The notes under the pieces were generated by a model. It was given only the letters and a program-made list of their open reading frames with translations. It had not been told where the DNA came from and did no database searches. From NCBI GenBank assembly GCA_964647685.1, contig CAZYJE010000006.1, positions 25,624-89,623 on the forward strand: a stretch of 64,000 nt of DNA. Reading direction: 5' to 3'. The stretch is from an uncultured Pseudomonadota bacterium. GTDB lineage: Bacteria > Babelota > Babeliae > Babelales > Vermiphilaceae. Made by a program: the position numbers and the translations under genes. This document shows positions 20,953 through 63,528 of this stretch, one piece after another (positions within the stretch are counted from its first letter, which is position 1; each line of letters opens with the position of its first letter).

Positions 20953-22105
20953 ATGAAGAAACTATATTTTACTTTCATAATCATTTTATTTTGTAATAGT
21001 TTAACTGCTCAAAATTCAAAAAAATATAGCAATACTTTATTTTCTACATATATATATGAAGGGAATAAATCTTTTGATATAGAATATGCCAATCTTTTTT
21101 TGCTTTTTGATAAAAAACCTATTGTAAATTATCTGCCTCAAAAAAATAAGAGTAAAAGTAAAACTATTGAGTTTGTTTTTCCAAAATTATCGATCCAGAG
21201 TAAAAAAGTTCAATTGATGGTTGAGAAAATAAATAACGTTAAAAATAATAATTTTTCTATTTCATTTGAAAAAATTAAAAAACCAATTAATGGAATGAAG
21301 CTTGTAATAAAATATAATTTTGAAAAAATGTTTGTTGATTATAAAGCTTTTGTAAATACATTCTTAAAAAAAAATGGCCTTAAATTTACTTTGTATAATA
21401 AAAGAAAAATAGCATTAATAAAGCAAACAAATAATAAATTGCTGCAAGTTGCTCAATTTAAAAAAAAAAAAACCTTGTATTATTCTTGACTTTGGACATG
21501 GTGGCAATGACCTAGGTGCAAATTTTAAAAATGGTACATTATGTGAAAAAACTGTTTGTTTAGATCTTGGTCTTACTCTTACAAAGTTGCTTAAAAAAAA
21601 AGGCTATGATGTTTTTTTAACACGAGATAAAGATAAAACGGTAAAACTTGCAGAAAGAATTGAAGTAGCTAAAAAGCATAAAAACGCTGATTTTTTTATT
21701 TCTATTCATGCAAATAGTGCTTTGAATAAAAGTGCTTCTGGTGTTGAAACTTTTTATTTCGATTATGATAAATTTAAAACAATGATTCCAGTTTTATCAA
21801 ATGTAAATAAAGCAATTTTATTGTACTATTATAAAAATGTTACAACTAAAAGTAAGAAACTAGCTCAATCTTTACAAAACAATATTCTACTTTTTGCAAA
21901 ACCTCATAATAAATATCTTATTGATAGAAAAATTAAATCCGCATCTAATATATTACTTTCTGCACTAAATATGCCTGCAGTACTTGTAGAGGTTGGTTTT
22001 TTATCTCATGAAAAAGAAGGTTTGCTTTTAAGCACTAAAAAATATCAAAAAATATTAGTTAATGGTATTTATAAGGCAATAGATCAATATTTAAGGAGTA
22101 GTTAA
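20953..22105 (+). pseudogene. N-acetylmuramoyl-L-alanine amidase (Amidase_3) with signal peptide, interrupted by a frameshift in an A13 run
   Basis: ORF 20905..21489 (signal MKKLYFTFIIILFCNSLTAQ from ATG 20953) and ORF 21449..22105 (IILDFGHGGNDLGA, TRDKD, FISIHANS, GVETFY) overlap around A13 at 21460-21472. Removing one A fuses them in frame. Confidence 0.7.
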
Positions 22106-22287
22106 TTTTTTATAAAAGTAATTTTATAGTGTGTTTTGAGAATATTAAAATATTAAAATTACTTTAATTAATAAAATATTCTTTTCTAATCTCGACTCAT
22201 TTGTTAAAGTTAGAGTGTTTTATAAAATATAATTCAATATAAAAATATCATTCATTAACTATTTATTTCTTTATTATTTGAGACATT

Positions 22288-23664
22288 GTGGTAGAAACTA
22301 TTTGGAATCAATTTTTAACTATTGTAAAAGAAGAGGTTGGAAGTCGAGTTGTTGAAACTTGGTTTAAGGCTATTTCTTTATGCCAGTGGGATTCTATCAA
22401 TAACACTGTTTTTTTACAAGCACCCAATACTTTTGTTAAAAACTGGATTGAAAATAAATATAAAGATCTTATTAAAATACATTTAGGTCGACTTCTTCAT
22501 GTAAAAACTTTAAAAATAATATTTCTTGATAATAAAGCTGATAAACATCTCAAAAATTCTGATACTTTTGCAAATGTCGATTTTGTTCCTGCAGTTATTG
22601 ATAGAAAAAAAAATACAGTAACAACAGCAAATAAATTTAAAACATATGGGCCTATTAATAAAACTTATCAATTTGAAACATTTATTGTTGGGCCTAATAA
22701 TTCATTAGCTCGAGCTGCAGCAGAGGCTGTAACTGATAATCCAGGCAAGCTTTATAATCCACTTTTTATCTATGGTGATTCAGGTCTTGGAAAAACACAT
22801 TTGCTTCATGCAATTGGCAACTGTATACGTGCAAAACATAAAGATTTGACTGTTTTGTATCAAACTGCGGATCGATTTGTTAATGAATTTATTAGTGCAA
22901 TTCGATTTAATAAAATGCATAGATTCCAATCAAAATATAATAAAGTTGATGTTTTATTGATTGATGATATTCAATTTATTTCTAATAAAGAGCAAACACA
23001 AGAAGCTTTTTTTCATATTTTTAATACGCTTTATGATTCTCATAAACAAATTGTTTTTTCTAGTGATACTTTTCCTCAAAATATTAATGGTATTGCAGAT
23101 CGACTCAAATCAAGACTTGCTTGGGGGCTTGTTGCAGATATTTATGCTCCAAGTATAGAGATAAAAATTGCAATATTGAAAAAGAAGGCCGATGCTCATG
23201 GTATTAATTTAGATACAGTTATTGCAACATTTATCGCTTCTCGTATTAATTCTAATATTAGAGAGCTTGAAGGAGCTTTAATTAGGATTGTTGCCTTTGC
23301 TTCTTTAACGAAACAAGATATTACATTAGAACTTGCTCAAAAAGTTTTATTGCAATCACTTAATAGCAAAACTCAAATTGTTAATTTTAATAGAGTTGTC
23401 AAATGTATTTCTCGACATTATCCTTATGATTTAGAATCATTGCGTTCTAAAAAAAGAAATAAAAATTTATCTTTTTCTCGTCATCTTGCAATGTTTTTAA
23501 TGAAAGAAGTTACCAATAAATCGTTTAGAGATATTGGTAAATATTTGGGTGGAAGAGATCATTCTACAGTTATGCATGCAGTAAATAAAATAGAAAAATA
23601 TTTATTGAATAATCCAAGTTTTTCTGAGCAAGTACGTAAAATGAAAAAAGAAATTTATACTTAA
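22288..23664 (+). CDS. dnaA: chromosomal replication initiator DnaA
   Basis: 458 aa with a GTG start. It shows the N-terminal WNQFL..VKEEVG...ETWF, Walker A GDSGLGKTHLLHAIG, box VII and the C-terminal DNA-binding domain (GGRDHSTVMHAVNKIE). Confidence 0.95.
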   Translation: MVETIWNQFLTIVKEEVGSRVVETWFKAISLCQWDSINNTVFLQAPNTFVKNWIENKYKDLIKIHLGRLLHVKTLKIIFLDNKADKHLKNSDTFANVDFVPAVIDRKKNTVTTANKFKTYGPINKTYQFETFIVGPNNSLARAAAEAVTDNPGKLYNPLFIYGDSGLGKTHLLHAIGNCIRAKHKDLTVLYQTADRFVNEFISAIRFNKMHRFQSKYNKVDVLLIDDIQFISNKEQTQEAFFHIFNTLYDSHKQIVFSSDTFPQNINGIADRLKSRLAWGLVADIYAPSIEIKIAILKKKADAHGINLDTVIATFIASRINSNIRELEGALIRIVAFASLTKQDITLELAQKVLLQSLNSKTQIVNFNRVVKCISRHYPYDLESLRSKKRNKNLSFSRHLAMFLMKEVTNKSFRDIGKYLGGRDHSTVMHAVNKIEKYLLNNPSFSEQVRKMKKEIYT

Positions 23665-24707
23665 TAGTATAAGTGAAAATCAGATTTTTTTGTTTGTGCT
23701 GCTATTTGTTCTGATTTTGTTCTAAAAAATTGGTCATATGCACATTTTGACATTAAAGATAAGATCCAGTTAATATAGCCTGAAAAGGTTTGTTTTTCTT
23801 TAAATCCAACAAGAGATGGAAAATGTTCTGTGTCAACAATAACCATTTTGTCAGTATTTTTTTCTAAAATAAAATTATTAATATTCGGATCAATTGCCAT
23901 ATCTAAGTAATTACATAATTCCATACAAAACTTTCTATTTTTTCTATTAAAAATAGAAAGTTCTTTTTTTGATAGAATCTTATCTGTAATAATTGCATAT
24001 GTTCCTGGAATAACTGTTTCAATAGATTTTTTGTTGCCAATATTATTGCCTACAATTTTTATCCACCTATTATGTTTTTTATTATCAGGAAGCCAGAACC
24101 ATTTTCGTGGTGTATCAATTATTTTTGACCATTTTCTAGATTTTTTTATTTTTTGTACAATCATTTCTTTGTTTTTAATACGAGTAAATCCCATCAGATG
24201 TCTATTTATTCCGCCAGCCATATTAAAGAAAAATATAGGTTCAAAACCTTTTGTATAAGGCTTTGTAAAACTTTCAGGGTTTTCTATAAATAATTTTACT
24301 ATAAATGGATAATTTTTATATTCTAATACGAGCAGGCCATAACACTTTTTTTTATTAAAATTTTTTTTATGAATAATGTTAAAGTCTGTTAACTGTTTTT
24401 TGCCTAAAAAAAGTTCATTAATTGCTTTTTCTAAGATAGTGCTTAACTCTTTTCCTTCAATTGATTGTTTTGTATTATTGCGAAATGATATTTTAAAAGA
24501 CGGTAATAAATGTTTATTGAAATATGGTTTATTGAAGGTTTGAAAAATTGGATATTCTTCAAGGTGAGAATTGATAAGTCCATATTTTTTTTTTGAGTTA
24601 TTTATCCAGCATGTTGTTATTTTTGGTATTTTTTTGTCTGGTCTATGTGGACTTCTTGTATAAATAATACAAGAGTTTGTTAGTAGAAAAAGTAAAAATA
24701 ATAACAT
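23661..24707 (-). CDS. secreted hypothetical protein, possible protein-kinase-like fold
   Basis: 348 aa with a signal-like N-terminus. Candidate kinase-fold blocks are FIVKL (beta3 Lys), DPNINNFIL (D-x4-N catalytic loop) and IVDTEHF (metal-binding Asp). The CDS is credible; the fold call is speculative. Confidence 0.6.
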   Translation of the reverse strand: MLLFLLFLLTNSCIIYTRSPHRPDKKIPKITTCWINNSKKKYGLINSHLEEYPIFQTFNKPYFNKHLLPSFKISFRNNTKQSIEGKELSTILEKAINELFLGKKQLTDFNIIHKKNFNKKKCYGLLVLEYKNYPFIVKLFIENPESFTKPYTKGFEPIFFFNMAGGINRHLMGFTRIKNKEMIVQKIKKSRKWSKIIDTPRKWFWLPDNKKHNRWIKIVGNNIGNKKSIETVIPGTYAIITDKILSKKELSIFNRKNRKFCMELCNYLDMAIDPNINNFILEKNTDKMVIVDTEHFPSLVGFKEKQTFSGYINWILSLMSKCAYDQFFRTKSEQIAAQTKKSDFHLYY

Positions 24708-24887: not shown

Positions 24888-25415
24888 ATGAAAGGTGAAA
24901 ATTTAAACCGTCAACATGAGATACTTCATCATTTAAACTGTATTCCAAAAAAGATTTTATCGATACACGGAAGAGAAGACATAACAGAATTTGTTTTGAG
25001 AGAACTTTGCCATAAAAGCTGTTTTAATTTTAAAAAAGCAGCTTATTTTGTTCAAAATCCAGATTTTAATTGCTTAAAAGGAGTTGCAGGTTATTTTCAT
25101 AATGAAACACCAACTGTTTGTGATTTATTATGGGAGCATCCAGATAAATTTGTAGATAGACTGCATGGAGCAGATTTTAATACAAAAGTAAGAAAACTTA
25201 ACCAACAAGATTTGAAATTTAAAAACAATCAAGAAGAATGTTTACAAAATATTTCGGAGCAACTGTCAATTCAAAATCCTTCGCATCGTTTGGTAAAAAT
25301 GAAGCATGGAAACAACGGTATTTTGGTTTTTGAAAAAGAAAATAAAGATGAACCAATTATCACTGATTATCTTGACAATGGAATTTCTTTATTAGGATTT
25401 TGTCCTATTTATTAA
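24888..25415 (+). CDS. hypothetical cytoplasmic protein
   Basis: 175 aa with RBS AAAGGA upstream and no signal peptide. It may resemble a small-ligand-binding (GAF-like) fold, but I cannot support that. Confidence 0.5.
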   Translation: MKGENLNRQHEILHHLNCIPKKILSIHGREDITEFVLRELCHKSCFNFKKAAYFVQNPDFNCLKGVAGYFHNETPTVCDLLWEHPDKFVDRLHGADFNTKVRKLNQQDLKFKNNQEECLQNISEQLSIQNPSHRLVKMKHGNNGILVFEKENKDEPIITDYLDNGISLLGFCPIY

Positions 25416-26593
25416 AGAGTTTTTATTAATCCTATAAGTGGTTTTCCACTTAAATATGTTAATGTTGCTCCACCACCAGTTGAGCAATAATTAATTTTTT
25501 TATCAAGACAGAGCTTTTGAGCTACTGCTACTGAGTCTCCTCCAGCTACAATGCTAAATCCATTGGAGTTGCCCATTTCTTTTAATATGTTCTTCATGCC
25601 TTGCAGTGTTGCTATATTCTTTGTGTGTCCAATTGCACCGTTGAAAAACAATGTTTTTGCTTGTCTAATCAAAGGTTGTATTAACTTTTCTGTTTTTGGG
25701 CCAATTGAAACCCCAACACCATTTGATGGAAAATCTTCAGCTTGACTATAAGAAAGTGTCCCATCTAAATTATTTTCTGCTATTTGATAATCAACAGGAA
25801 AAACTATATTTATATTTTTTTCTTCTGCTAGCTTTAAGACTTTTTTACTTTCTTCTTGTAAATAATCATCTACTAAGGATTTACCAACCGGTTTTTTTAG
25901 TGCTTTTAAAAAAGTAAAACAGATTGCAGGGCATAAAATAACTGTTGTTACTTGATTCATTAAGTTTTTTATTAAAGGTAATTTATCTTTAATTTTTCCT
26001 CCACCTATAATCAGAACAAAAGGATTTTCTGCTTTTGTCAGTATTTTGTTAAGCATGTTAAATTCACGTTCAACAAGTAGTCCGACAGTTTTGTTTTCAC
26101 TCTTAAAAAGTTCAGGTACAAGTGTAATGGAAGTATCATCTCTATGAAGAAGTCCAAATGCATCATTAACATAGTAATCAGCAAGATTTGCAAGTTTTTT
26201 GGCAAAAGTTTTATTTTGATTTTGTTCCTCAGGGAAAAATCTTAAATTTTCTAAAAGAAGAATTTTTTTATTTTTAATAAAACTTTTTTGATATGCAGTT
26301 TCTAGATTTGGTTCAAACTCTATATTATAGTTATATTTTTCAAAAACAGTTGATATTTTCTTTGTAGAAAGATGTACTTCTTTTTGCTTTGGTCTACCAA
26401 TATGTGTTGCCAAAATAATTTTACCACCTTTTTGTAAAATTAAATTGATGGTTGGAAAAATTGCTTTTATACGATGCTCTGAAACAATATGATTATTTTC
26501 TATAGGTATGTTTAAATCAGCTCTAAGAAAAATTCTCTTGTCTTTTAGGTCCATTGTAGAAAGTTTAGATGATACGTCTATAATATTTTTCAT
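25412..26593 (-). CDS. pgk: phosphoglycerate kinase
   Basis: RIFLRADLNIP, ATHIGRP, GGGKIKDKL and STGGGATL motifs. ORF track extends to 26665, but the ATG at 26593 (MKNIIDVS...) sits 1 nt after the upstream stop and matches normal Pgk length. Confidence 0.92.
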   Translation of the reverse strand: MKNIIDVSSKLSTMDLKDKRIFLRADLNIPIENNHIVSEHRIKAIFPTINLILQKGGKIILATHIGRPKQKEVHLSTKKISTVFEKYNYNIEFEPNLETAYQKSFIKNKKILLLENLRFFPEEQNQNKTFAKKLANLADYYVNDAFGLLHRDDTSITLVPELFKSENKTVGLLVEREFNMLNKILTKAENPFVLIIGGGKIKDKLPLIKNLMNQVTTVILCPAICFTFLKALKKPVGKSLVDDYLQEESKKVLKLAEEKNINIVFPVDYQIAENNLDGTLSYSQAEDFPSNGVGVSIGPKTEKLIQPLIRQAKTLFFNGAIGHTKNIATLQGMKNILKEMGNSNGFSIVAGGDSVAVAQKLCLDKKINYCSTGGGATLTYLSGKPLIGLIKTL

Positions 26594-26594
26594 A

Positions 26595-27818
26595 TTATCT
26601 TTCAAATCGTAAAACATTAGAAATATTAATATTTTTTGTATTTTTAACCGAAAGCCATGTTGCAATAAAGCTTAATAGTAGAACAACTACAAATGTTATG
26701 ATTAAAATTTCGCTTGTCATTTTAACTGGTAAATAAGAAGCATAATAAGCGTCAGGAAGAGTTATAAAAGGGTAATTATCTAAAATATAAGCAGCAATAA
26801 TAGCAAATAGCAATCCAGATACTGTACTTACAAAAGAAATTATCATTCCTATTGATAAAAAAATATGTGAAATCATTTTATTTGTCATTCCCATTACTTT
26901 TAAAATAGCAATATCCTTACGTTTTTTTGTTATATACATAAATATAAGTGACATAATATTAGTGCTGGCAACAAGTGTTATAAGGCTCAGAAGTAAAAAC
27001 ATTGCATACTTTTCTAATTTTAATGATGAAATAATTGCAGGATACAAGTCTTTCCATGAATAAACATGCATATTAAATCGTTTTTCTAGTTGAGCAATTA
27101 CTTCTTCTGATTTTTTTTCGTCATGAAGCATAAGTGAAAGATGTGTTAACTGAGCATCTTCAAAAAGACTTTTTAAAAAAGAAAGAGAGCAAAAAGCCAT
27201 TGATGCATCAAACTCTTCTATACCCATTGTAAAGATCCCATTTATAAAAGCATCTTTTTGTTCTAATTTTATTTTTTTACTAGTTATCTCATCTTCTGGT
27301 GCAAATAAAAGTGTTATAGAGTCGTTTACTTCAAGGTCAAAATTTTGAGCTAATTTGCTACCAATCATAATTTCATTTTGTTGTAATAACTCAAAAAAAG
27401 ATGCTGTTTGATCATCACTTTTTATTTTCATATTCAGTTGATGATTTTTGTTATTTAAAAAATTAACTCCTTTTAAAATAATTGTTTCATAAGAGTCTTG
27501 CTTGGTAATAACAACCTGTTTTGTAGTGTAAGCATGGATTGATTTTATTTCAGGAAACTCTTTTTTTATTATTTTTTTTATTGTTGCAACATTAAGTGGA
27601 TCATTATTATGAGTGTGCATAGTAATATGACTATGCGCACCTCTGATTGTTTTGTATGTTACATGTTCAAATCCGTTCATTACACTTGCAATTAATGCAA
27701 GAGAAAATGCTCCTATACAAATGCCAAAAAAAGAAATTAGAAACATAGTTGTTATTGTTGGCTCTTTTTTTGTTCCTTTTAAAAAGCGCCAAGAAAGAAG
27801 AAGAGTTAGTTTATTCAT
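26595..27818 (-). CDS. lipoprotein-releasing ABC transporter permease, LolC/LolE family
   Basis: 407 aa. N-terminal SWRFLKG..., a large periplasmic loop, then a C-terminal FtsX-type 3-TM bundle (DIAILKVMGM). Confidence 0.85.
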   Translation of the reverse strand: MNKLTLLLSWRFLKGTKKEPTITTMFLISFFGICIGAFSLALIASVMNGFEHVTYKTIRGAHSHITMHTHNNDPLNVATIKKIIKKEFPEIKSIHAYTTKQVVITKQDSYETIILKGVNFLNNKNHQLNMKIKSDDQTASFFELLQQNEIMIGSKLAQNFDLEVNDSITLLFAPEDEITSKKIKLEQKDAFINGIFTMGIEEFDASMAFCSLSFLKSLFEDAQLTHLSLMLHDEKKSEEVIAQLEKRFNMHVYSWKDLYPAIISSLKLEKYAMFLLLSLITLVASTNIMSLIFMYITKKRKDIAILKVMGMTNKMISHIFLSIGMIISFVSTVSGLLFAIIAAYILDNYPFITLPDAYYASYLPVKMTSEILIITFVVVLLLSFIATWLSVKNTKNINISNVLRFER

Positions 27819-53622: not shown

Positions 53623-54999
53623 ATGCAAAAAGGTCAGCGTAAAAATAACCAGATAAAGGTTATAAATCCTGAACGAATTTTAGGTAAATCTTTACCCGCT
53701 AATATAGACGCAGAAAAAGCTGTGCTTGGCGCATTATTGTTAAACGATGAAAACGTTAATAAAGTTTCTGAAATAATTTTACCAGAAGATTTTTATAGTT
53801 ATCAAAACAAGATCATTTATGAAATGATCTTGTTTGTTTTTCAAAAATATAATCGTTTAGATCTTGTCTTACTACAAGATGCTCTTAAAAAAAAAGATTT
53901 GCTTGAATCAATTGGTGGAATAAGTTCTCTTATTGCCTTACAAGAAGATATTCCTTCGCTAGGGTTGATTGAGCAACATTGTCAAATTATTAAAGAAAAA
54001 TCTATTTTACGAGATTTAATTAAATCAGCTACAAATATAATTACAAACTGCTACGATCAAGATGAAAAAAATATTTCTGCAGTTTTAGATAAAGCTGAAC
54101 AAACAATTTTTCAGATATCAAGCAAACGAACAAGTCAAAATTTTGTTCAACTTAATATTTGGCTCAAAAAAACATTTCAACATTTATCTAGCATTAAAAG
54201 TCATAGCAAGGGGATTACTGGAATACCATCAGGCTATAAAAAACTGGATAGCATGTCATCTGGTTTTCAAAATGGAGATTTTGTTATTTTAGCAGCTCGT
54301 CCTTCGATGGGTAAAACCGCTTTAGCGCTTACTTTAGCAAGCCATGCTGCAAATCAAGGATTTACAGTTGGATTCTTTTCTTTAGAGATGTCAGCAGAAC
54401 AGCTAACATTGAGGCTTTTGTCTTCTGAATCAGGTATAGCTCATCACAATATCAGAAATGCTACTATTACTTCAGAAGAATGGGTTGACCTTACCAATGT
54501 TGCAGCTCGACTTGCTGAAATGAAACTATTTATTGATGACACTGCCGGAATGAATATTATGGATTTGCGAGTCAAAGCTCGTAAATTAAAAGCTGAACAC
54601 GATGTTCAATTAATTGTTATTGATTATTTACAACTACTCAACTCAAGTAGTCGTCACGAAAATAGACATCAAGAAGTTTCAGCAATTTCTCGTGCCCTAA
54701 AAGCACTTGCAAAAGAGTTAAAAATACCAATTATATCTCTTTCTCAACTTTCTCGTGCTGTCGATAGCCGTATGGACAAAAGACCAATGTTATCTGATCT
54801 TCGTGAATCCGGAGCTATTGAACAAGATGCTGATTTAATTATGTTTTTATACAGAGATATTGTTTATAATTCTGAAACAGAAAACCCAGCTCTTTCAGAA
54901 TTAATAATTGGAAAACAAAGAAATGGTCCAACAGGGACAGTTTATTTAAATTTTTCTAAAGAGTTAACAAAGTTTGAAGATATTGGAGATGCCTATTAG
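53623..54999 (+). CDS. dnaB: replicative DNA helicase
   Basis: N-domain LPANIDAEKAVLGALLL, Walker A ARPSMGKTALAL, Walker B LIVIDYLQL and SLSQLSRAVDSR. No intein. Confidence 0.95.
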   Translation: MQKGQRKNNQIKVINPERILGKSLPANIDAEKAVLGALLLNDENVNKVSEIILPEDFYSYQNKIIYEMILFVFQKYNRLDLVLLQDALKKKDLLESIGGISSLIALQEDIPSLGLIEQHCQIIKEKSILRDLIKSATNIITNCYDQDEKNISAVLDKAEQTIFQISSKRTSQNFVQLNIWLKKTFQHLSSIKSHSKGITGIPSGYKKLDSMSSGFQNGDFVILAARPSMGKTALALTLASHAANQGFTVGFFSLEMSAEQLTLRLLSSESGIAHHNIRNATITSEEWVDLTNVAARLAEMKLFIDDTAGMNIMDLRVKARKLKAEHDVQLIVIDYLQLLNSSSRHENRHQEVSAISRALKALAKELKIPIISLSQLSRAVDSRMDKRPMLSDLRESGAIEQDADLIMFLYRDIVYNSETENPALSELIIGKQRNGPTGTVYLNFSKELTKFEDIGDAY

Positions 55000-55070
55000 A
55001 TTCATTTTATAATCATTAAAGAAAAATCAATAAATATAATATATGTGGAAATTATATAATAAGGTCAAAA

Positions 55071-55172
55071 ATGAATTTTTTTAAAAAATATGATTTAATA
55101 GCTTGCTTTACAGCATTTTTTATTGTTTCTGGTTTATTTGCAAAAGGACTACACTCACTGTTTATACATTAA
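55071..55172 (+). CDS. possible 33-aa hydrophobic peptide
   Basis: Below the track cutoff. AAGG lies 6 nt upstream. Product: MNFFKKYDLIACFTAFFIVSGLFAKGLHSLFIH. Weak. Confidence 0.25.
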   Translation: MNFFKKYDLIACFTAFFIVSGLFAKGLHSLFIH

Positions 55173-55199
55173 AAATTAATTAAAATAGGGATCAACGTA

Positions 55200-56681
55200 A
55201 TGAAGAAAATATTTATAATAAGTATTTTCTTTTGTTTTTTTCAAGCAAAAGGAAATACATGGTGTACAATTCAAGAAAATGTTTGCAATGCTGTTGTACA
55301 AATATTTGTACAAGCTATTTCAACAAATATATTAAAACCTTACGAAACACCACAAGAAAAATCTGGCACTGGCAGTGGATTTATCATTAATGAAAAAGGA
55401 TATATTATTACCAATGCTCATGTCGTTAATCAAGCAATTGGTATTTGGATTTATATACCATCTATTGGCAAACATTTAATGAAAGTAGAACTTGTCAGTA
55501 TAGCTCCAACAAAAGATTTGGCTTTACTTAAAATTAGTGATTTTGATCTTGAATTTATTAAAAATAAATTAGGAGCTATCCCTTATGTTGCTTTGGGAAA
55601 TTCAGACTCTCTAAAAAAAGCAGAAAATATTTTAACTTTGGGCTATCCAATGCCAACAAGCCAATCAACATTAAAAATAACAAAAGGTATTTTTAGTGGA
55701 AAAGCAATCATTAATAATCAAGAAATGTTGCAAATTGATGCAGCTGTCAACCCAGGAAGTTCTGGATGTCCTGTTTTTAATAAAGCTGGAAAAGTTATTG
55801 GTATTACTCAATCAGGAATTGTTGAAGCACAAAACATTGGTTATATTATTCCTGTAAATAGATTAAAAAATGCCCTTAAGCATATGTACAAAATACCTCT
55901 TCTTCATAATACATTTCTTGGACTTTTAACAACCAATGCAACAATTAGTTTAACCGATTATTTAGGCAATCCTCAACCAGGTGGATGCTATGTTATTGAT
56001 GTGATTAAAAATAGTGCACTTGAAAAAGCTGGTGTTCAAAAAGATGACATGATCTATGAAGTGAATGGGTACGAACTTGATATTTATGGAGAGATGAGCG
56101 TTGAGTGGTCTCAAGATAGAATCTTTATAGTAGATTATATTGAACGACTTTCTATTGGCGATAAGGTAGACATGAAAGTTTACAGAAAAGGGAGGCTGTT
56201 GAGCTTGACTGCAACAATTTGCGAATCTGATCTTCCTAAAATCAGAGCAATTTATCCTGGTTACGAAAAAATCGATTATGAAATTTTTGCAGGAATGATT
56301 GTCATGCAATTAAATATTAACCATATTCAACTGTTTAAAAATTATGCACCAGGACTTTTAAAATATACACAAATGAATTTACAAAATGAGTCAGTTTTGA
56401 TAATTACTCATATTTTTAACAATTGTTTACTTTCAAGAGCACAAACGATAAGTGCTGGAATGGTTGTAGAAGAAATAAATAACCAACCAGTCAAAACACT
56501 ACAAGATTTTAGAAGTATAATAAAAAGCAGTCTTGACGATAAACATTTATTAATAAAAACGATGGATACAATATCAAGTTATTCAAGTTCTATTTTTACT
56601 GTACTTGCAATGCAAGATGTTATACATGAAGAGCCACAACTTGCTCAAATATATGGTTATCCAATGTCGAATCTATTGTGA
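55200..56681 (+). CDS. HtrA/Deg-family serine protease with signal peptide (paralogue of 11719..13191)
   Basis: Signal MKKIFIISIFFCFFQAKG; triad contexts TNAHV, DLALLKI and NPGSSGCPV. Same PDZ and C-terminal arrangement as the paralogue. Confidence 0.85.
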   Translation: MKKIFIISIFFCFFQAKGNTWCTIQENVCNAVVQIFVQAISTNILKPYETPQEKSGTGSGFIINEKGYIITNAHVVNQAIGIWIYIPSIGKHLMKVELVSIAPTKDLALLKISDFDLEFIKNKLGAIPYVALGNSDSLKKAENILTLGYPMPTSQSTLKITKGIFSGKAIINNQEMLQIDAAVNPGSSGCPVFNKAGKVIGITQSGIVEAQNIGYIIPVNRLKNALKHMYKIPLLHNTFLGLLTTNATISLTDYLGNPQPGGCYVIDVIKNSALEKAGVQKDDMIYEVNGYELDIYGEMSVEWSQDRIFIVDYIERLSIGDKVDMKVYRKGRLLSLTATICESDLPKIRAIYPGYEKIDYEIFAGMIVMQLNINHIQLFKNYAPGLLKYTQMNLQNESVLIITHIFNNCLLSRAQTISAGMVVEEINNQPVKTLQDFRSIIKSSLDDKHLLIKTMDTISSYSSSIFTVLAMQDVIHEEPQLAQIYGYPMSNLL

Positions 56682-57163
56682 TTATCTTAGGAGTTGATCC
56701 TGGTTGTAGATTTTCTGGCTTTGCAATCTTAAAAAAAGAAAAACAAAAATCTTATTTATTAGATTATGGCTGCTTGACAATGTCGTCTAAGCAGCCACTT
56801 GTCCAAAGAATTGGCATTTTCCATGAATTTTTTACAGAAAAAATAATTAAATGGAAAGTGACAAGCATAGCGCTCGAAACTTCTTTTCTAGGAAAAAATG
56901 CACAAAATTTTTTAAAGCTTGGTTATTTAAGAGGTATCTTATATTTACTGTGCAACAACTACAGTTTACAACTTCACGAGTTTTCACCTCGAGAAATTAA
57001 ACTATCGGTAACTGGTTATGGCGCTGCAAGTAAAGATCAAGTTGCAAGGGCAGTTGTCCAATTTTTTCCTGCAATTAAAACTAAAATACCAATTCGTGAT
57101 GATGTAACTGATGCCCTTGCAATTACTCTATGTGGATTATGGGCCAGCAAAAGATTTAATTAG
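56678..57163 (+). CDS. ruvC: crossover junction endodeoxyribonuclease RuvC
   Basis: (GTG)IILGVDPG..., the ALE acidic residue, and the C-terminal DVTDALAI. Overlaps the upstream stop (GTGA). Confidence 0.9.
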   Translation: MIILGVDPGCRFSGFAILKKEKQKSYLLDYGCLTMSSKQPLVQRIGIFHEFFTEKIIKWKVTSIALETSFLGKNAQNFLKLGYLRGILYLLCNNYSLQLHEFSPREIKLSVTGYGAASKDQVARAVVQFFPAIKTKIPIRDDVTDALAITLCGLWASKRFN

Positions 57164-57247
57164 CAGGAATTTATTGTTTTATCTAATATTTCTATGCAAA
57201 ACTCTAAGTAAGAAAGCTTTATTAGTTAAAAACTAAGGAGAGTCTTT

Positions 57248-57751
57248 ATGAAAGGTTTGCAATCATTACTGACAGGCAATATTTATAATAACGATAACAA
57301 TATTTCATTATCTGACTATTTTTATAAATCAATGTATATTGATAAACCATTTACCGATGAAGCTATTTTGTACTTACAAGAAATTTTTTTACAAAATGGT
57401 TTTCATTTTTTACAAGTTGAAGATATAGAGTTTAGTAGAACATTAGTGAAAAATTTTTTAAAATCACTTAATTGTCATAATGATATTGCGGCAATAAGTT
57501 TAGAAGCTATTGATTGCGATAAAAAAGTAAATAATATTTATCATAATCTTATATTTAATGGTTATATTGACGGCAGGCTCCATAGTGACTTTGAAGAATT
57601 TTTTTTGGATCAATGGTTTTATGATTTTCTATGGATCGAAGCTTCTAAAAAATTACTCAACTCATCTTGGATTAATCCATTTTTAAAAAAAATGAAAGAA
57701 TTGAATTTTGACAAAGAAATTCCAATTTTGATTTTTTTTTATCAAGAATAA
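57248..57751 (+). CDS. hypothetical cytoplasmic protein
   Basis: 167 aa with RBS AAGGAGAG upstream. Orphan. Last plus-strand gene before the polarity switch. Confidence 0.5.
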   Translation: MKGLQSLLTGNIYNNDNNISLSDYFYKSMYIDKPFTDEAILYLQEIFLQNGFHFLQVEDIEFSRTLVKNFLKSLNCHNDIAAISLEAIDCDKKVNNIYHNLIFNGYIDGRLHSDFEEFFLDQWFYDFLWIEASKKLLNSSWINPFLKKMKELNFDKEIPILIFFYQE

Positions 57752-58021
57752 TCATATTACAAAGATTTTTTAATTTTGAAACTTTTTAAAAAAATAAAAC
57801 AAAAATTTTAGACTGATAGGGTAATTAGGCTCAAATTTTGAATTTAAGATGAAAGTCATACAAAAGGTATAAATATTCGACAATCATTAAAATCTTTCAA
57901 TACGGTTAAACCTGAAAAACGTTTTTTGAGTAATAATAAAATTCTAATTTCTAAATGAATAAATAATAATTTTGTCGACACTTAAAGTTTTCACAATTAA
58001 AAATCTATAATAGATGTATTT

Positions 58022-58054
58022 AAATAAAAATATCCGCTCAATTTAGAGCGGATA
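58022..58054 (-). terminator. rho-independent terminator for the 58208..58690 transcript
   Basis: TATCCGCTC-AATTTA-GAGCGGATA. On the minus strand it is followed by TTTTTATTTA. Confidence 0.55.
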
Positions 58055-58060
58055 TAATAA

Positions 58061-58088
58061 AATTCTGATAATGTATATTATGTAAAAA
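58061..58088. other. dif: candidate dif site (XerC/XerD chromosome dimer resolution site)
   Basis: AATTCTGATAA-TGTATA-TTATGTAAAAA. The central hexamer is identical to E. coli dif, the right arm matches E. coli at 9/11 positions and the first 9 nt of the B. subtilis arm, and the inner ATAA of the left arm is conserved. The site lies at a convergent polarity switch. Confidence 0.65.
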
Positions 58089-58207
58089 ATCTTATGCTTT
58101 ATTTAAAGGAAAAATCAAAGTTTAGATAAGTTACTTATAAAAATCCATGTTAACTAGATATTAAAACATTTAAAATTAAAAATCAATAAATTAATAATTT
58201 TCTTTTA

Positions 58208-58690
58208 TCATTTCTTAAAACTTAATAAATATCCATCAAAAGAATATTTTGATTCTTCATAGCACTCATTGAAGCTACTACTTTCTTTATCGTGCCTATC
58301 AAAAATTTTTTTTACTTGGCAAAAGCATTCATCAAAACTCTCTTTTTTAATAAAAAATTGATCCGAATAAAAATTATTACTTATACATAACTTTTTTAAT
58401 GACCTGTTACTATCTATTTCATCTCTATTTCTTTTTTTACTATTCTCAATATTTTCAAACAAACCACTCTCTTTTACACTATCAATATCCGGGTCAAAGA
58501 CTTTTTCTCGTAAATAGTCATCTAACCTTTTCTCTCGATCAGTAAGAAAATTTTTAATCTTTTTCTTGCTTCTTACATGTGTTGTACAAACTGTACGAAA
58601 TTTTCCATCGAGACATTTAACTCTTCTGGAAACAGAGGCAATTTTATTATTGAATAACAATACTAGTGCAAATAAAAATACTTTATACAT
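58208..58690 (-). CDS. hypothetical secreted protein
   Basis: 160 aa with signal-like MYKVFLFALVLLFNNKIASV. Orphan. Confidence 0.5.
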   Translation of the reverse strand: MYKVFLFALVLLFNNKIASVSRRVKCLDGKFRTVCTTHVRSKKKIKNFLTDREKRLDDYLREKVFDPDIDSVKESGLFENIENSKKRNRDEIDSNRSLKKLCISNNFYSDQFFIKKESFDECFCQVKKIFDRHDKESSSFNECYEESKYSFDGYLLSFKK

Positions 58691-58788
58691 ATCAACTATC
58701 TTCTATCTGGAAACTATAATTAAACTCAAGTTTTATCAATTAATCTTTAATTATATATTTTCAATATAAAACATCAATAATAATTGTA

Positions 58789-59775
58789 TTATTTTAGAAC
58801 ATAAGCTACTCTTTCTAGATAATTTCTATTATTAAATATAAAATATTTAATTGAATTATTTTCATAATTATATCTTGGAACTAATGGAAAAATTGACTCT
58901 TGTAAATATTTTTTACTATCACTAGTTAAAACCTCTAACGGCACGCTAAAAGAAAAAAGTTTTTCATCACTCCATATACCACTTTTTAAATTAATTTGAT
59001 GATAAAAAAATTTTATTGCTTTATCATTTTTATCTATAGCTGCTTTATGCGTTAAGTAAAAACCCATAGAATTAGAAGCCATTGTTAAAAACAAAATAGG
59101 ATCTTTTTGGCTGCTAATAATAGTCAATGATTGCAACTCATCTATTTCTATTTTTTTTTCTTTATTTTCTTGCTCTAACAATAAAGCCACTTTTTCTTCA
59201 AAAGAACAACTACCATCAATAAATAAATCTTTTTTCATTAAAGGATATGCAGCGCTTTTTATGGAGTACAAACCATCAACTCTTTCAACATAAAATAACA
59301 AATCATCTATTTTTTGAGGGTACAAATAATCAATGCCTTCCTTTTCTAGTAAAATAGAGACATTACCATCAACGCCTATTTGATACAGACCGTAATTGTC
59401 ACAATATTTCGCACTTGCATAAAAACAAACACTATCTATCCAATGCAGTAAAGTAAAATTATATAGGGGATAGTATAAATCAAGAGACTGGGGGCAACGT
59501 TTATGAAATTTTTTGACTCTGATTCTTCCATTATCAATAAAGCTAAAACCACTTTTGTTTGGAAGCAGCCTTACTCCAAATGGAACATAAGAAGAAGAAA
59601 GAAGCTTTTCTTTTTTAGTTGTTTTCTTGCTCCATAAAACAACTTGAATGTTACGCCCTTCTTTTTGGTCCATGCAAATAAATCTATCTGAATCTAACTG
59701 AGCAACAGGGTAAAAATAATCCTGAGAATATAAAGAAGTGCAGAAAAATAAAATAATGAATTTTAGAAACTTCAT
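58789..59775 (-). CDS. hypothetical secreted protein (possibly beta-rich/propeller-like)
   Basis: 328 aa with signal MKFLKFIILFFCTSLYSQ. Recurrent short beta-strand-like segments. Family not recognised. Confidence 0.55.
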   Translation of the reverse strand: MKFLKFIILFFCTSLYSQDYFYPVAQLDSDRFICMDQKEGRNIQVVLWSKKTTKKEKLLSSSYVPFGVRLLPNKSGFSFIDNGRIRVKKFHKRCPQSLDLYYPLYNFTLLHWIDSVCFYASAKYCDNYGLYQIGVDGNVSILLEKEGIDYLYPQKIDDLLFYVERVDGLYSIKSAAYPLMKKDLFIDGSCSFEEKVALLLEQENKEKKIEIDELQSLTIISSQKDPILFLTMASNSMGFYLTHKAAIDKNDKAIKFFYHQINLKSGIWSDEKLFSFSVPLEVLTSDSKKYLQESIFPLVPRYNYENNSIKYFIFNNRNYLERVAYVLK

Positions 59776-59835
59776 AAAACCAACTCCTTTATAAAAAGTA
59801 TAAAACCTTAATTGTTTATAATTTATAATATTATT

Positions 59836-59875
59836 AAAAAATAAACCACCGCGGCAACCGAAGTTATCGCGGTGG
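59836..59875 (-). terminator. GC-rich hairpin with T-run on the minus strand (terminator of recF read-through or of a small RNA)
   Basis: CCACCGCG-14 nt-CGCGGTGG (59846-59875). On the minus strand it is followed by TTTATTTTTT. Confidence 0.5.
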
Positions 59876-60092
59876 AAAAAAGGAGAGTAGTAATGAAGCC
59901 TAAATTAAAGCGTGCTATCAATTACTTGATTAACACTATAATAATAATACTGTAAATGATCAGAATGTCAATTAAAATAAAAAATAATAATTCAACATTA
60001 TAAATGATTATTAAGTATCATTATCAATTAGAATATAACAGCCTGGAGCTACTGTCAACAGCCCCAAAATAGAAAAACCCTTTCAAATGGGG

Positions 60093-61181
60093 CTATTGGA
60101 TATTTAAAGAGCATTTTTTAGCATTTAATTGCATCAGCAAGTCGTCAAATAGCCCTTTGTTAATAGGTGAGGTAAAAATAAGCTGATTTGAAAGAGTCGA
60201 AAGAAATGATATAAGTTTTTTGAGCCTCAATTCGTCAAAATCGGTCATAAAATCGTCCAAAAGCAATGTTGCAAGCCCTTTTTTATCTTGCAAGTGCTGT
60301 AATTGAGCTATTTTAAGGAGTAAAACAGTTAATTTCTGCTGTCCTCGTGACGCATAATTTTTACTCTTCTTGTCTTGAAACTTTATCAATATGTCGTCTA
60401 AATGGGCGCCAAACAAAGTTCTTTTGCAAGTAACTTCTTTTAAAGAGAATTCATGATCTTGCAAAAAAACAGCTACAGATTTTCCTATTACCTCTTTCTT
60501 AGGTCTAAATTCCAGGCAAACTTGTAGTTGTTCATCAAAAATAGTTGTTAACATTACATTAATGCGATTTTCAAAATCTTTGAGTAACTGTATGCGTAAT
60601 TTATGAATCTCAGCTGTTTTTTGCCATAAAAGCTTGGTCCAAACTACAAAAGAGTCTTTATCAATTTTAAAAGCTCTTAAAAGGCTATTTCTATTATCAA
60701 GTACTTTTTTGTACTCTCTAAGCATTTTACCATACAGAGGATCTTGTAATAAAATTGCCTGATCTATAAAACTTCTTCTAACCTCTGGGCCACCTTTAAT
60801 CAAAAAAAGATCATCTTCTGTTAACGTAATAATACGATAATGATCCATCAACTCTTTAAACGAACTAATATTTTTTTGGTTCAGTTTTACAAGCCGTTTT
60901 TTCTTTTCAAAGCCAACTTGCAAACTACAATCCATTCTTTGCTCATTTGTTCCAGAGAAAAAATCTGTTTTTATAAAAAAAGTATCTTTACCAAATTGCA
61001 ACAAATTGCCAGGAGAATATGTTCTAAAAGAACGAAGATAACAAAGATAATGAAGAGCTTCAAGCAAAGTTGTTTTCCCAACTCCATTTACACCTTGAAT
61101 AACAACAATTTTGTTATCAAGATCTAACTTTAAGCTATCAAAACAACGAAAGTTTTTTATCTCTATGTGCTTTATGTGCAC
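60093..61181 (-). CDS. recF: DNA replication and repair protein RecF
   Basis: MHIKHIEIKNFRCF..., Walker A GVNGVGKTTLLEAL, signature SRGQQKL and Walker B LLLDDF. Confidence 0.92.
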   Translation of the reverse strand: MHIKHIEIKNFRCFDSLKLDLDNKIVVIQGVNGVGKTTLLEALHYLCYLRSFRTYSPGNLLQFGKDTFFIKTDFFSGTNEQRMDCSLQVGFEKKKRLVKLNQKNISSFKELMDHYRIITLTEDDLFLIKGGPEVRRSFIDQAILLQDPLYGKMLREYKKVLDNRNSLLRAFKIDKDSFVVWTKLLWQKTAEIHKLRIQLLKDFENRINVMLTTIFDEQLQVCLEFRPKKEVIGKSVAVFLQDHEFSLKEVTCKRTLFGAHLDDILIKFQDKKSKNYASRGQQKLTVLLLKIAQLQHLQDKKGLATLLLDDFMTDFDELRLKKLISFLSTLSNQLIFTSPINKGLFDDLLMQLNAKKCSLNIQ

Positions 61182-61199
61182 GACCTACCTTATCTTATA

Positions 61200-62324
61200 T
61201 TAGTTATTTGCTGTTGGAGAAACCGGCATAACCAAATAAACCAAGTTGAAATTTTCTGTTTTTGTTTCAAAAATAATTGGTCGAGATGAATCTTTTAAAG
61301 AAAATCCAATAGTACTATCAGAAAAAACTTGGAGTCCATTTAATAAGTAAGGAGCATAAAAACGAATATTCATATTTTCACCATCAAATTTTTCCAGCGG
61401 TACATTTTCTTCTAGTTTACCAACTTCTTTATTTTGCATAGACACATTCATATAATCAGATGTAAAATCAAATTTTGTAGCAATAAATTGTCCAGAAAGT
61501 AAACAAGAAGACCTTCTTAATGTTTTTATAAAATGAGTTCTGTCTACCGTTGCTCCAACAAATCCTTTTTTATCTAAAATTGGTTGATACTCAGGAAATG
61601 GATCAACAAGTAATTTTGTAAAAAAGTTAAATGATTCGCCAGAAAAAACTAACTGATTATTGCAAACTCCAAGAAATACATGAGCTGAATTAGAACCTTC
61701 CAAAATCTTTTTTAGTTCAAAAATTGCTCGCCTTGGCAGTAACCATTTTTTATCTTGCTCTAATGTATATTTAGATGAAGTAACTTGCGCCAAACAATGA
61801 CCATCGGTTGCTGTCATTTTAAGCTGATCACCAGAAATCTCTAAATACAAACCGTTAAGAGCTGTGTTTGAATTATTTTGCGGAATCAAAAAAGCAACTT
61901 TACTAAGAATTTCAAGCAAAAAAGATGACTCCATTTCCATCAAATTTTCTATGCGCTCTGGAAACGGTGGAAACTCTTGCGCATCTTTAATCTTAAGAGC
62001 CAAATTTACTGATCCAGACTTAATCAAAAGTTGATCATTTTTCATGTAAAATTCAATTTCACCATCAAGCTCTTTTACAAAGTCAAAAATTCGACGCCCT
62101 GAAACTAAAAAAGATTTTGGCTCTTCGATATCGCTACTTTTGACTAAATAACTTGCTTGTAGACTAATTTCTAAATCTGTACTTTTAAGTACTAATTCTT
62201 TGTGCCCGATATGAAATAAAATAGATGTTGTCGTATCAAGTGTCGTACGTTTTGTACAAATAGGTTGCATAGAAGATAGAATTGCCATTAAAGATTTTTG
62301 ATCTACAACAAATTTATTTTTCAT
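61200..62324 (-). CDS. dnaN: DNA polymerase III beta sliding clamp
   Basis: 374 aa with a three-domain repeat pattern; LNGLYLEISGDQLKMTATDGHCLA and the C-terminal YLVMPV are typical DnaN. Confidence 0.93.
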   Translation of the reverse strand: MKNKFVVDQKSLMAILSSMQPICTKRTTLDTTTSILFHIGHKELVLKSTDLEISLQASYLVKSSDIEEPKSFLVSGRRIFDFVKELDGEIEFYMKNDQLLIKSGSVNLALKIKDAQEFPPFPERIENLMEMESSFLLEILSKVAFLIPQNNSNTALNGLYLEISGDQLKMTATDGHCLAQVTSSKYTLEQDKKWLLPRRAIFELKKILEGSNSAHVFLGVCNNQLVFSGESFNFFTKLLVDPFPEYQPILDKKGFVGATVDRTHFIKTLRRSSCLLSGQFIATKFDFTSDYMNVSMQNKEVGKLEENVPLEKFDGENMNIRFYAPYLLNGLQVFSDSTIGFSLKDSSRPIIFETKTENFNLVYLVMPVSPTANN

Positions 62325-62441
62325 ATGATACCTGCCATGTTCAATGTACTAATATTTTTTATTTATAATCCTTCATTAGTATAATAAAGAACAAAAAAAT
62401 AGAAAGAAAATTAAGACATAATGATTGCTTCGCTCTTAATA

Positions 62442-62577
62442 AACTGGATTGCCACGCTTCGCTCGCAAAGACGAAAAAAGAATATTTATTTTCTATATAC
62501 ATATGATTTTTTAAATAAGAAAATAACCAAGTAACCTGTCTTTGCGAGCCTATAAAAATAGGCGCGGCAATCCAGTT
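62442..62577. repeat. GC-rich inverted-repeat element, locus B (U - 64-nt AT spacer - U')
   Basis: 62442-62473 is identical to 6300-6331. 62538-62577 (GTCTTTGCGA[GCCTATAAAAATAGGC]GCGGCAATCCAGTT) is the inverted partner and carries a different inserted hairpin. Confidence 0.75.
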
Positions 62578-62619
62578 TATTTTATAATATTTCATTTAAA
62601 AACTAAAAAATAAAAAACA

Positions 62620-63528
62620 TCACGAACGTGAATGTTTTTTGTCATAAACTTCACGTAAATAATTTGTATCCAAATGTGTATAAATTTGCACTGTCGATAA
62701 ATTTTCGTGCCCTAAAAGCAGCTGTAAAGACCTTAGGTCGGCTCCATTTTTCAGCATATGCGTTGCAAGCGAGTGCCGCAACTGATGGGGAGAAATCACT
62801 TTATCGCTGCCCGTTTTTTCCCACAGCTCTTTTAAAATAAACCAAAACGACTGACGAGAAATTGGCTTCATTTTGCCACCATAATAAACAGGGAACAAAT
62901 AATTACCTTTATTATGTTTTTTGCCACCATCTAAAAATTTATGCAAAACATCGGTAATATATTTTTTAAGCAAATCTAAAATAGAATCTGGAATTGGAAT
63001 ATGCCTACCCTTTCCACCCTTTCCTGCAACGGCAAGGACTTTAGAATCAAAATGAACTTGAGAAATAGTGAGTGTTGTAAGCTCTGTAATACGCATACCA
63101 GAAACATACAGTAAAAAAAGCATTACCTTGTTGCGAACGCCAATATCTGTTGTATCAAGCTCTGCAACTTGAAACAATTTTTTTAGTTCCAATTCGCTTA
63201 AATAACGTGGCAATTTTTTGTCTATTTTAGGGAAATGCAAATCGGTAGCATGATTTTTTGTTCCTAAATATTTGCTTGTGTAAGAAAAAAAAACCTTTAA
63301 AGAAGAAATTTTGCGAGCCATAGTACGAGCACTAAGATTCAGCTCTTTTAAATGGTACAAAAAACTTTTAACCTGCTCAGCTGTACAACTTTCAACAACT
63401 GCCTTATGAGTAATATGTAAAAAAGTAATCAGTTGCTTAATGTCCCGTTTGTAAGCATCAAAGGTATTTTTAGAAACTCGCTTTTCTGTAAGTAAAAATG
63501 TTTCAAAACGCATCAATGCCATACTCAT
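62620..63528 (-). CDS. xerD: tyrosine site-specific recombinase XerD
   Basis: N-terminal SAM-like domain (FETFLLTEKRVSKNTFDAYKRDIKQL), RQSFWFILKE (compare XerD RQTFWHRIKH, from memory), and catalytic HQLRHSLATHML...LLGHENLSTVQIYTH. Confidence 0.85.
   Translation of the reverse strand: MSMALMRFETFLLTEKRVSKNTFDAYKRDIKQLITFLHITHKAVVESCTAEQVKSFLYHLKELNLSARTMARKISSLKVFFSYTSKYLGTKNHATDLHFPKIDKKLPRYLSELELKKLFQVAELDTTDIGVRNKVMLFLLYVSGMRITELTTLTISQVHFDSKVLAVAGKGGKGRHIPIPDSILDLLKKYITDVLHKFLDGGKKHNKGNYLFPVYYGGKMKPISRQSFWFILKELWEKTGSDKVISPHQLRHSLATHMLKNGADLRSLQLLLGHENLSTVQIYTHLDTNYLREVYDKKHSRS

Follow-up and report, generated by a model that had tools for sequence, protein, structure and literature searches.

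Position of dnaA near the predicted replication terminus, and of a predicted nusA-linked origin, in a Dependentiae chromosome

Since dnaA is treated as a near-universal landmark for the chromosomal origin, oriC, a dnaA gene that stands without its usual neighbours raises the question of where replication of its chromosome begins. The dnaA gene considered here lies in a stretch of 64,000 nucleotides (the window; contig C6:25624-89623) of a metagenome-assembled genome (MAG) from the Dependentiae (TM6)/Babeliales, which comprises 901 kb in 48 contigs at about 30% guanine plus cytosine (GC), with an estimated completeness of 96.6% and a contamination estimate of 0.26%, and which is labelled G000 in the comparisons below. 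An initial annotation of the window proposed that dnaA starts with a GTG at 22288 and has neither dnaN downstream nor a DnaA box upstream, that it lies about 34 kb from a candidate dif site at 58061-58088, and that oriC is therefore not beside it. Our analysis leads us to propose, with a probability of roughly 0.88, that dnaA is located near the replication terminus and is unlinked from a nusA-linked oriC on the opposite side of the chromosome, a reading that is drawn from sequence comparison.

GC skew and the predicted origin upstream of nusA

GC skew was computed contig by contig in windows of 5 kb. The skew was very clean: almost all of the large contigs were of one sign throughout, and there were just two sign switches genome-wide. 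Contig C25 (1,544 bp) consists of N throughout. The switch from plus to minus, or skew maximum, was located at about 84 kb of contig C6, which corresponds to about 58 kb in the window and to dif, and the switch from minus to plus, or skew minimum, at about 24.4 kb of contig C19. Across dnaA the skew was positive, with no change of sign before about 58 kb. In each of the four arms, GC skew at third codon positions (GC3 skew, plus strand) agreed in sign between plus-strand genes, minus-strand genes and non-coding DNA, and it flipped at dif and at the C19 point. Because the sign is shared by genes on both strands as well as by non-coding DNA, the skew follows replication and not transcription. 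It was also shown that 100 of 149 long open reading frames (ORFs) are co-oriented with modelled forks leaving C19:24.4 kb and meeting at dif.

The initial annotation had suggested a genome-wide scan for DnaA boxes along with the GC skew, and both converge on C19 at about 24.4 kb. The only cluster of DnaA boxes in the genome consists of nine copies of TTATCCACC within 251 bp (C19:24347-24597). In total TTATCCACC is present 13 times in the genome, nine of them in this cluster, whereas about 5 would be expected genome-wide, and the second-best cluster in the scan was made of three sites with one mismatch. The C19 cluster occupies the whole of the spacer, which is bounded on one side by the 5' end of nusA-infB and on the other by the 3' end of a UDG-family gene, and the element as a whole (about 24,280-24,600) is found immediately upstream of nusA. 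Reading from nusA, it begins with an A/T tract of about 40 bp, followed by the trio-like run TAG TAG TAA TAG, a 4-bp spacer and one box; it continues with a spacer of about 57 bp, three boxes at an 11-bp period and one further box, and it ends with a T-run and four boxes that face the other way, likewise with a period of 11 bp, and all nine boxes read TTATCCACC. The module formed by the AT tract and TAGTAGTAATAG next to the first box is kept in 12 genera. As the element combines a box cluster that is unique in the genome, an AT-rich tract with a trio-like run and a location at the skew minimum, we predict that it is the oriC of the chromosome, which would place the origin outside the window. 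A search for the canonical parS site (TGTTTCACGTGAAACA, up to two mismatches), which could have marked the origin independently, gave no match in the 901 kb, and the organism may be without a standard ParABS system.

In the mechanism that we propose, DnaA produced from the terminus-proximal gene would diffuse to oriC and act in trans. On the arrays, DnaA would assemble into two opposed oligomers comparable to the Left and Right subcomplexes of Escherichia coli oriC, and the oligomer beside the trio and AT tract would open the duplex for the loading of DnaB. Forks would then run in both directions and meet at dif, where Xer would resolve chromosome dimers.

The dnaA locus and the terminus region

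The features of the window that are relevant to the position of dnaA are as follows.

21449-22105, plus strand: N-acetylmuramoyl-L-alanine amidase gene, upstream neighbour of dnaA (Pfam Amidase_3, E=6.7e-47)
22106-22287, no strand: AT-rich spacer upstream of dnaA, 182 bp, 14.8% GC, without DnaA boxes
22288-23664, plus strand: dnaA, GTG start, 458 amino acids (Pfam and full-length alignment)
23661-24707, minus strand: convergent neighbour of dnaA, 348 amino acids, hydrophobic N-terminal helix (no Pfam match)
25412-26665, minus strand: phosphoglycerate kinase gene, pgk (Pfam PGK, E=6e-103)
53623-54999, plus strand: dnaB, replicative helicase gene, 3 kb from dif (Pfam DnaB, DnaB_C)
56678-57163, plus strand: ruvC (Pfam RuvC)
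58061-58088, plus strand: dif, XerCD-type (11-6-11 sequence, GC-skew maximum)
60093-61181, minus strand: recF (Pfam SMC_N, AAA_23; syntenic in the relative G017)
61200-62324, minus strand: dnaN, beta clamp (Pfam DNA_pol3_beta domains 1-3)
62620-63528, minus strand: XerC/XerD-type tyrosine recombinase gene (Pfam Phage_integrase, Phage_int_SAM_1)

The product of dnaA gave three Pfam domain matches above cut-off (DnaA_N, 53 bits; Bac_DnaA, 225 bits; Bac_DnaA_C, 83 bits) and could be aligned from end to end with DnaA of Bacillus subtilis (8BTG, E=2e-109). In this alignment the Walker A and Walker B motifs, sensor I, the box VII arginine finger, sensor II and the DNA-reading motif of domain IV were all matched (GDSGLGKTHL, DVLLIDDIQF, VFSSD, DRLKSRLAWGL, NIRELEGAL and GGRDHSTVMHA). 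In a profile search of the contigs, dnaA was the sole match to PF00308 in the genome, and therefore the genome has no second DnaA and no Hda homologue. Thus characterized, dnaA is predicted to be a normal, functional, single-copy initiator gene with no physical linkage to the origin. For comparison we used 80 related dnaA loci across the phylum, in most of which the GTG start is apparently kept, as it is in E. coli dnaA.

The description first given of the region upstream of dnaA was borne out by the scan. On both strands of the 182-bp spacer there were zero 9-mers within two mismatches of TTATCCACA or TTATCCACC, and the relaxed consensus TTWTNCACA is thereby excluded as well. The absence of a box from 182 bp is what would be expected by chance alone, and it becomes meaningful because nine boxes are present at the predicted origin and a box cluster was found upstream of dnaA in none of the 80 related loci. 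The whole window contained 14 one-mismatch DnaA boxes, compared with 20.5 expected. Upstream of dnaA, matches to sigma-70-like promoters showed no excess over shuffled sequence, k-mer recurrence over the 80 loci revealed no conserved motif beyond the end of the amidase gene, and the 8-mer TTATCCAC was present in one copy in 39.6 kb of dnaA-upstream DNA from the 80 relatives, which is the background rate. With its promoter region free of DnaA boxes, dnaA here probably lacks the box-mediated autoregulation described for E. coli and B. subtilis. The one copy of TTATCCACC that follows dnaA, at window position 24059 and 395 bp beyond its stop codon, was considered as a regulatory site and rejected, as such a copy was seen in 4 of the 80 loci in relatives and about 4.5 were expected.

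The canonical dnaA-dnaN(-recF-gyrB) cluster was not found at this locus, where there is no dnaN directly downstream of dnaA and no flanking cluster of boxes, and in the relatives dnaN was located within 6 kb of dnaA in 0 of the 80 loci. The block that is conserved has the order amidase-dnaA-(convergent 348-amino-acid protein)-pgk and is located 34 kb from dif; homologues of the 348-amino-acid neighbour were found in 68 of the 80 loci, of the amidase in 65 and of pgk in 51. The initial annotation had described the neighbour as a convergent orphan gene. The convergent arrangement and the 4 nucleotides shared with dnaA (23661-23664) were both confirmed, but with homologues in so many of the loci the gene is not an orphan.

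At the skew maximum, the 28-mer at 58061-58088 reads AATTCTGATAA / TGTATA / TTATGTAAAAA, a near-canonical 11-6-11 dif with a conserved XerD arm, which is present in a single copy, has counterparts near dnaA and dnaN in relatives, and is accompanied by a gene for a Xer recombinase. The candidate dif thus proved to coincide with the switch of the skew from plus to minus, and it marks the replication terminus. The window takes in the terminus region of a Dependentiae chromosome. The distance from dif to dnaA is 34.4 kb, and dnaN, which with recF had been placed 37 kb away on the other strand, is 37.5 kb from dnaA on the opposite strand, beyond dif. From 53623 to 63528 the gene order around dif is dnaB, an HtrA-like protease gene, ruvC, dif, two genes without a confident Pfam match, recF, dnaN and xerC/D. 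The core dnaB-ruvC/recF-dnaN is retained in two relatives, G017 (same family) and G037 (another family); dnaB adjoins ruvC and dif in the former and ruvC in the latter. Two one-mismatch boxes near dnaN (62675 and 62692) were considered as a relic origin, a candidate that was rejected because they are unconserved in G017 and G037 and compatible with chance.

The 348-amino-acid neighbour of dnaA belongs to a conserved Dependentiae family of about 350 amino acids with an N-terminal hydrophobic helix. An alignment of 33 sequences had a mean column identity of 44%, and the family has 23 invariant residues, including D273, N278, D292 and E294. The AlphaFold model of the neighbour had a predicted local distance difference test score (pLDDT) of 93 and a predicted template modelling score (pTM) of 0.89. 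When the model was compared with the PDB there was no significant match, the best having E=0.02, and many of the weak hits (E of at least 0.02) were protein kinases or aminoglycoside phosphotransferases.

Relatives and alternative explanations

The relatives sampled were 261 Dependentiae genomes from a single order. The pattern TTATCCACNNNTTATCCAC, a pair of boxes spaced by 11 bp, was detected in 21 of the 31 close relatives and, over the phylum, in 161 of the 261 genomes, and the reversed control pattern gave 0 hits. The pattern was always found in two opposed arrays about 130-150 bp apart, and at one locus per genome where the places were listed, the exceptions being a small number of draft assemblies in which two contigs gave hits. 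In all 12 loci examined, which come from different genera, nusA directly follows the box arrays; in 10 of them the arrays are flanked on the far side by a UDG gene, a C11 peptidase gene or both. Among genomes that lack the exact word, 8 of 10 loci had the same architecture upstream of nusA when up to one mismatch was allowed, and in the other two (G021 and G059) it was recognised by eye, with variant words.

The box word varies by lineage while the architecture is constant, the words being TTATCCACC, TTATCCACA, TTATGCACC/TTATCAACC, TTATCGACA and TTATGAACA. Also among the variant words upstream of nusA is TTATCAACA, and the word of G059 is CTATTCAC-like; the loci with variant words include those of G059, G009, G026, G021, G024 and G025. 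The lineage words look like a natural series for co-evolution between DnaA domain IV and its box. Expanded arrays were seen in G003 (C9:5818-6178), whose 11 box pairs include one additional forward array, and in G259, which has 18 forward pairs. In G038 the whole origin is found on two contigs (C3 and C16), which may represent duplication or assembly redundancy.

The complete chromosome of G017 (1,596,033 bp, 39% GC) shows the same arrangement. Its skew turns from minus to plus within 345-350 kb, with the arrays at 350,048-350,208, and from plus to minus at 1,100 kb, with dif at 1,100,558, and its dnaA is located at 1,131,852, 31 kb from dif. G037, also complete (1,118,422 bp), has a box pair at 652,114. 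For single-contig genomes only (n=10), the circular distance between dnaA and oriC was divided by the length of the chromosome, and the resulting fraction was in the range of 0.38-0.50 in 10 of 10:

G010: 0.498
G017: 0.490
G014: 0.485
G055: 0.475
G013: 0.463
G009: 0.447
G037: 0.417
G039: 0.410
G035: 0.377
G054: 0.376

On large contigs of G002, G028, G030, G023, G052 and G040, dnaA and oriC are separated by 433-595 kb. It was further found that a dif match lies at a distance of 31-54 kb from dnaA in G000, G017, G002, G018, G007, G008, G019, G030, G028 and G074, and that the separation of dnaA and dnaN is 31-61 kb in every one of the 17 genomes in which they share a contig (the MAG and 16 relatives), with the two genes convergent, toward dif, in 15 of the 17. 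The layout, with the predicted oriC by nusA and with dnaA, dnaN and dnaB by dif, is ancestral to the sampled phylum. The proposal that oriC does not lie beside dnaA is supported by the skew and its link to replication, by the box cluster and by the complete relative G017; there was neither a box cluster in 22106-22287 nor a skew minimum at dnaA.

Several points weigh against this placement of dnaA and oriC. The physical distance between the two in the 48-contig MAG is taken from relatives, and the strand orientation of the trio run with respect to the box was provisionally judged by comparison with the layout in B. subtilis. In two families (G021:C2 and G024:C1) dnaN, on the minus strand, is located about 40 kb below dnaA, on the plus strand, and the two genes are divergent. 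A dif site was not recognised in the ruvC/recF spacer of G037, and the sampled skew around the dnaB-ruvC/recF-dnaN junction of that genome was noisy. Finally, in the second family with complete genomes (f3) dnaA is less tightly antipodal, with fractions of 0.38-0.42 in 4 of its 5.

It might be argued that the arrays upstream of nusA are a DnaA-titrating or regulatory locus, similar to datA or DARS or serving the control of nusA-infB, and that the true origin is elsewhere. The arrays do sit in the nusA promoter region, and clusters of DnaA boxes that are not origins are known in E. coli and B. subtilis. Nonetheless, this explanation appears very unlikely, as the arrays are within about 1 kb of the GC-skew minimum both here and in the complete relative, have an adjacent AT-rich tract and a trio-like module predicted to unwind, and are the sole cluster in a genome with no other skew minimum. 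We consider it highly improbable, too, that a cryptic origin with diverged sites by dnaA, or a relic by dnaN, fires alone or together with the nusA site. Such an origin would agree with the standing of dnaA, dnaN and recF as classic origin markers, with the very AT-rich dnaA spacer and with the two one-mismatch boxes about 350 bp upstream of dnaN; however, the skew climbs monotonically through dnaA and peaks at dif, no box within two mismatches is found upstream of dnaA, neither G017 nor G037 keeps the boxes near dnaN, and those at the nusA site are canonical, and therefore the specificity of DnaA has not drifted here.

The genome being a 48-contig metagenome bin, contig C6 could also be chimeric or mis-binned, and the proximity of dnaA and dif an artefact. 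To this explanation we give the least credence of all. The window from 11.7 to 63.5 kb is collinear with 1,156-1,094 kb of the complete G017, a member of another genus, which makes a misassembly of C6 unlikely; this covers 50 kb from upstream of dnaA to xer. Moreover, the spacing of dnaA to dif and of dnaA to dnaN recurs in many relatives, and the contamination estimate of the MAG is 0.26%.

Why dnaA stands by the terminus is a separate matter. Simple inheritance of the position is compatible with the extensive collinearity with G017. It was also considered, as a doubtful suggestion, that the location of dnaA, dnaN and dnaB at dif either has been selected as a timer or goes back to an ancient exchange of origin and terminus. 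These genes would be the last to be copied, so that the ratio of initiator gene to origin would halve at initiation and recover only at the end of replication. If selection were at work, this would give a built-in, termination-coupled timer that blocks re-initiation in a lineage with no detected Hda or dnaA-promoter box. If history were the reason, an ancestral dnaA-dnaN origin would have become the terminus after a new origin arose by nusA.

Comparison with known systems

In E. coli, oriC lies between mnmG/gidA and mioC, with dnaA about 42 kb away, and consists of a DNA unwinding element (DUE) and Left and Right DnaA-oligomerisation regions. The placement of dnaA and oriC that we propose for the Dependentiae resembles this system in that oriC does not adjoin dnaA, the boxes stand on one side of the unwinding element, and they form two opposed groups at an 11-bp period. 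The systems differ in that dnaA of E. coli is origin-proximal (less than 1% of the chromosome away) and autoregulated by way of a DnaA box in its promoter, whereas here dnaA is antipodal with a boxless promoter. Furthermore, the arrayed sites in E. coli are degenerate and of low affinity, whereas all of the boxes here are consensus boxes, and the flanking gene here is nusA. A 'canonical one-sided' class of oriC with two opposed DnaA-oligomerisation regions has been described (PMC13643167), and the C19 element fits this class.

The B. subtilis basal unwinding system consists of DnaA-boxes 6 and 7, DnaA-trios (3'-GAT-5') and an AT-rich region. The C19 element is similar in having a box, a short spacer, at least three trios with a central A (TAG TAG TAA TAG) and an AT-rich tract, with the function of the trios here predicted. 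A search rule for the basal unwinding system asks for at least three trios within 16 bp of a box (PMC8287927), and the C19 module agrees with this rule. The spacer between box and trio is 4 bp here and about 12-14 bp, often GC-rich, in the relatives. In contrast, the origin of B. subtilis is split into two parts around dnaA and adjoins dnaN, while the predicted origin described here is unlinked from both.

These comparisons bear on practice as well as on mechanism. It is a common convention to number genomes from dnaA. In the Dependentiae, numbering or marking of the origin by dnaA would mislabel the genomes, as dnaA there marks the trough and not the peak. A phylum with dnaA, dnaN, recF and dnaB around dif also offers a natural test of the effect of initiator-gene position; in E. 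coli, chromosomal position is already reported to matter for the DnaA-control loci datA and DARS (PMC5010248). Cultured Dependentiae in protist hosts (Babela, Vermiphilus and Chromulinavorax) make the prediction directly testable. In the literature searched, the coverage of which was incomplete, we found no report of a terminus-proximal dnaA/dnaN/dnaB cluster conserved across a phylum and no paper on a terminus-proximal dnaA in Dependentiae.

For one cultured member of the Dependentiae, Chromulinavorax destructans, an origin was predicted from GC skew and TTATCCACA boxes at 651,641-652,233 of 1,174,272 bp (PMC6561590); that account is silent on the position of dnaA, on a linkage to nusA and on conservation in the phylum. 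That dnaA can be unlinked from oriC is an already known situation. The SkewDB survey describes the gene as 'typically but not necessarily' close to the origin and places it no more than 5% away from the skew origin in slightly over 80% of chromosomes (PMC8941118). Compared with the cases found there, the displacement in the Dependentiae is near-maximal (0.38-0.50), includes dnaN, recF and dnaB along with dnaA, and is conserved in every family checked.

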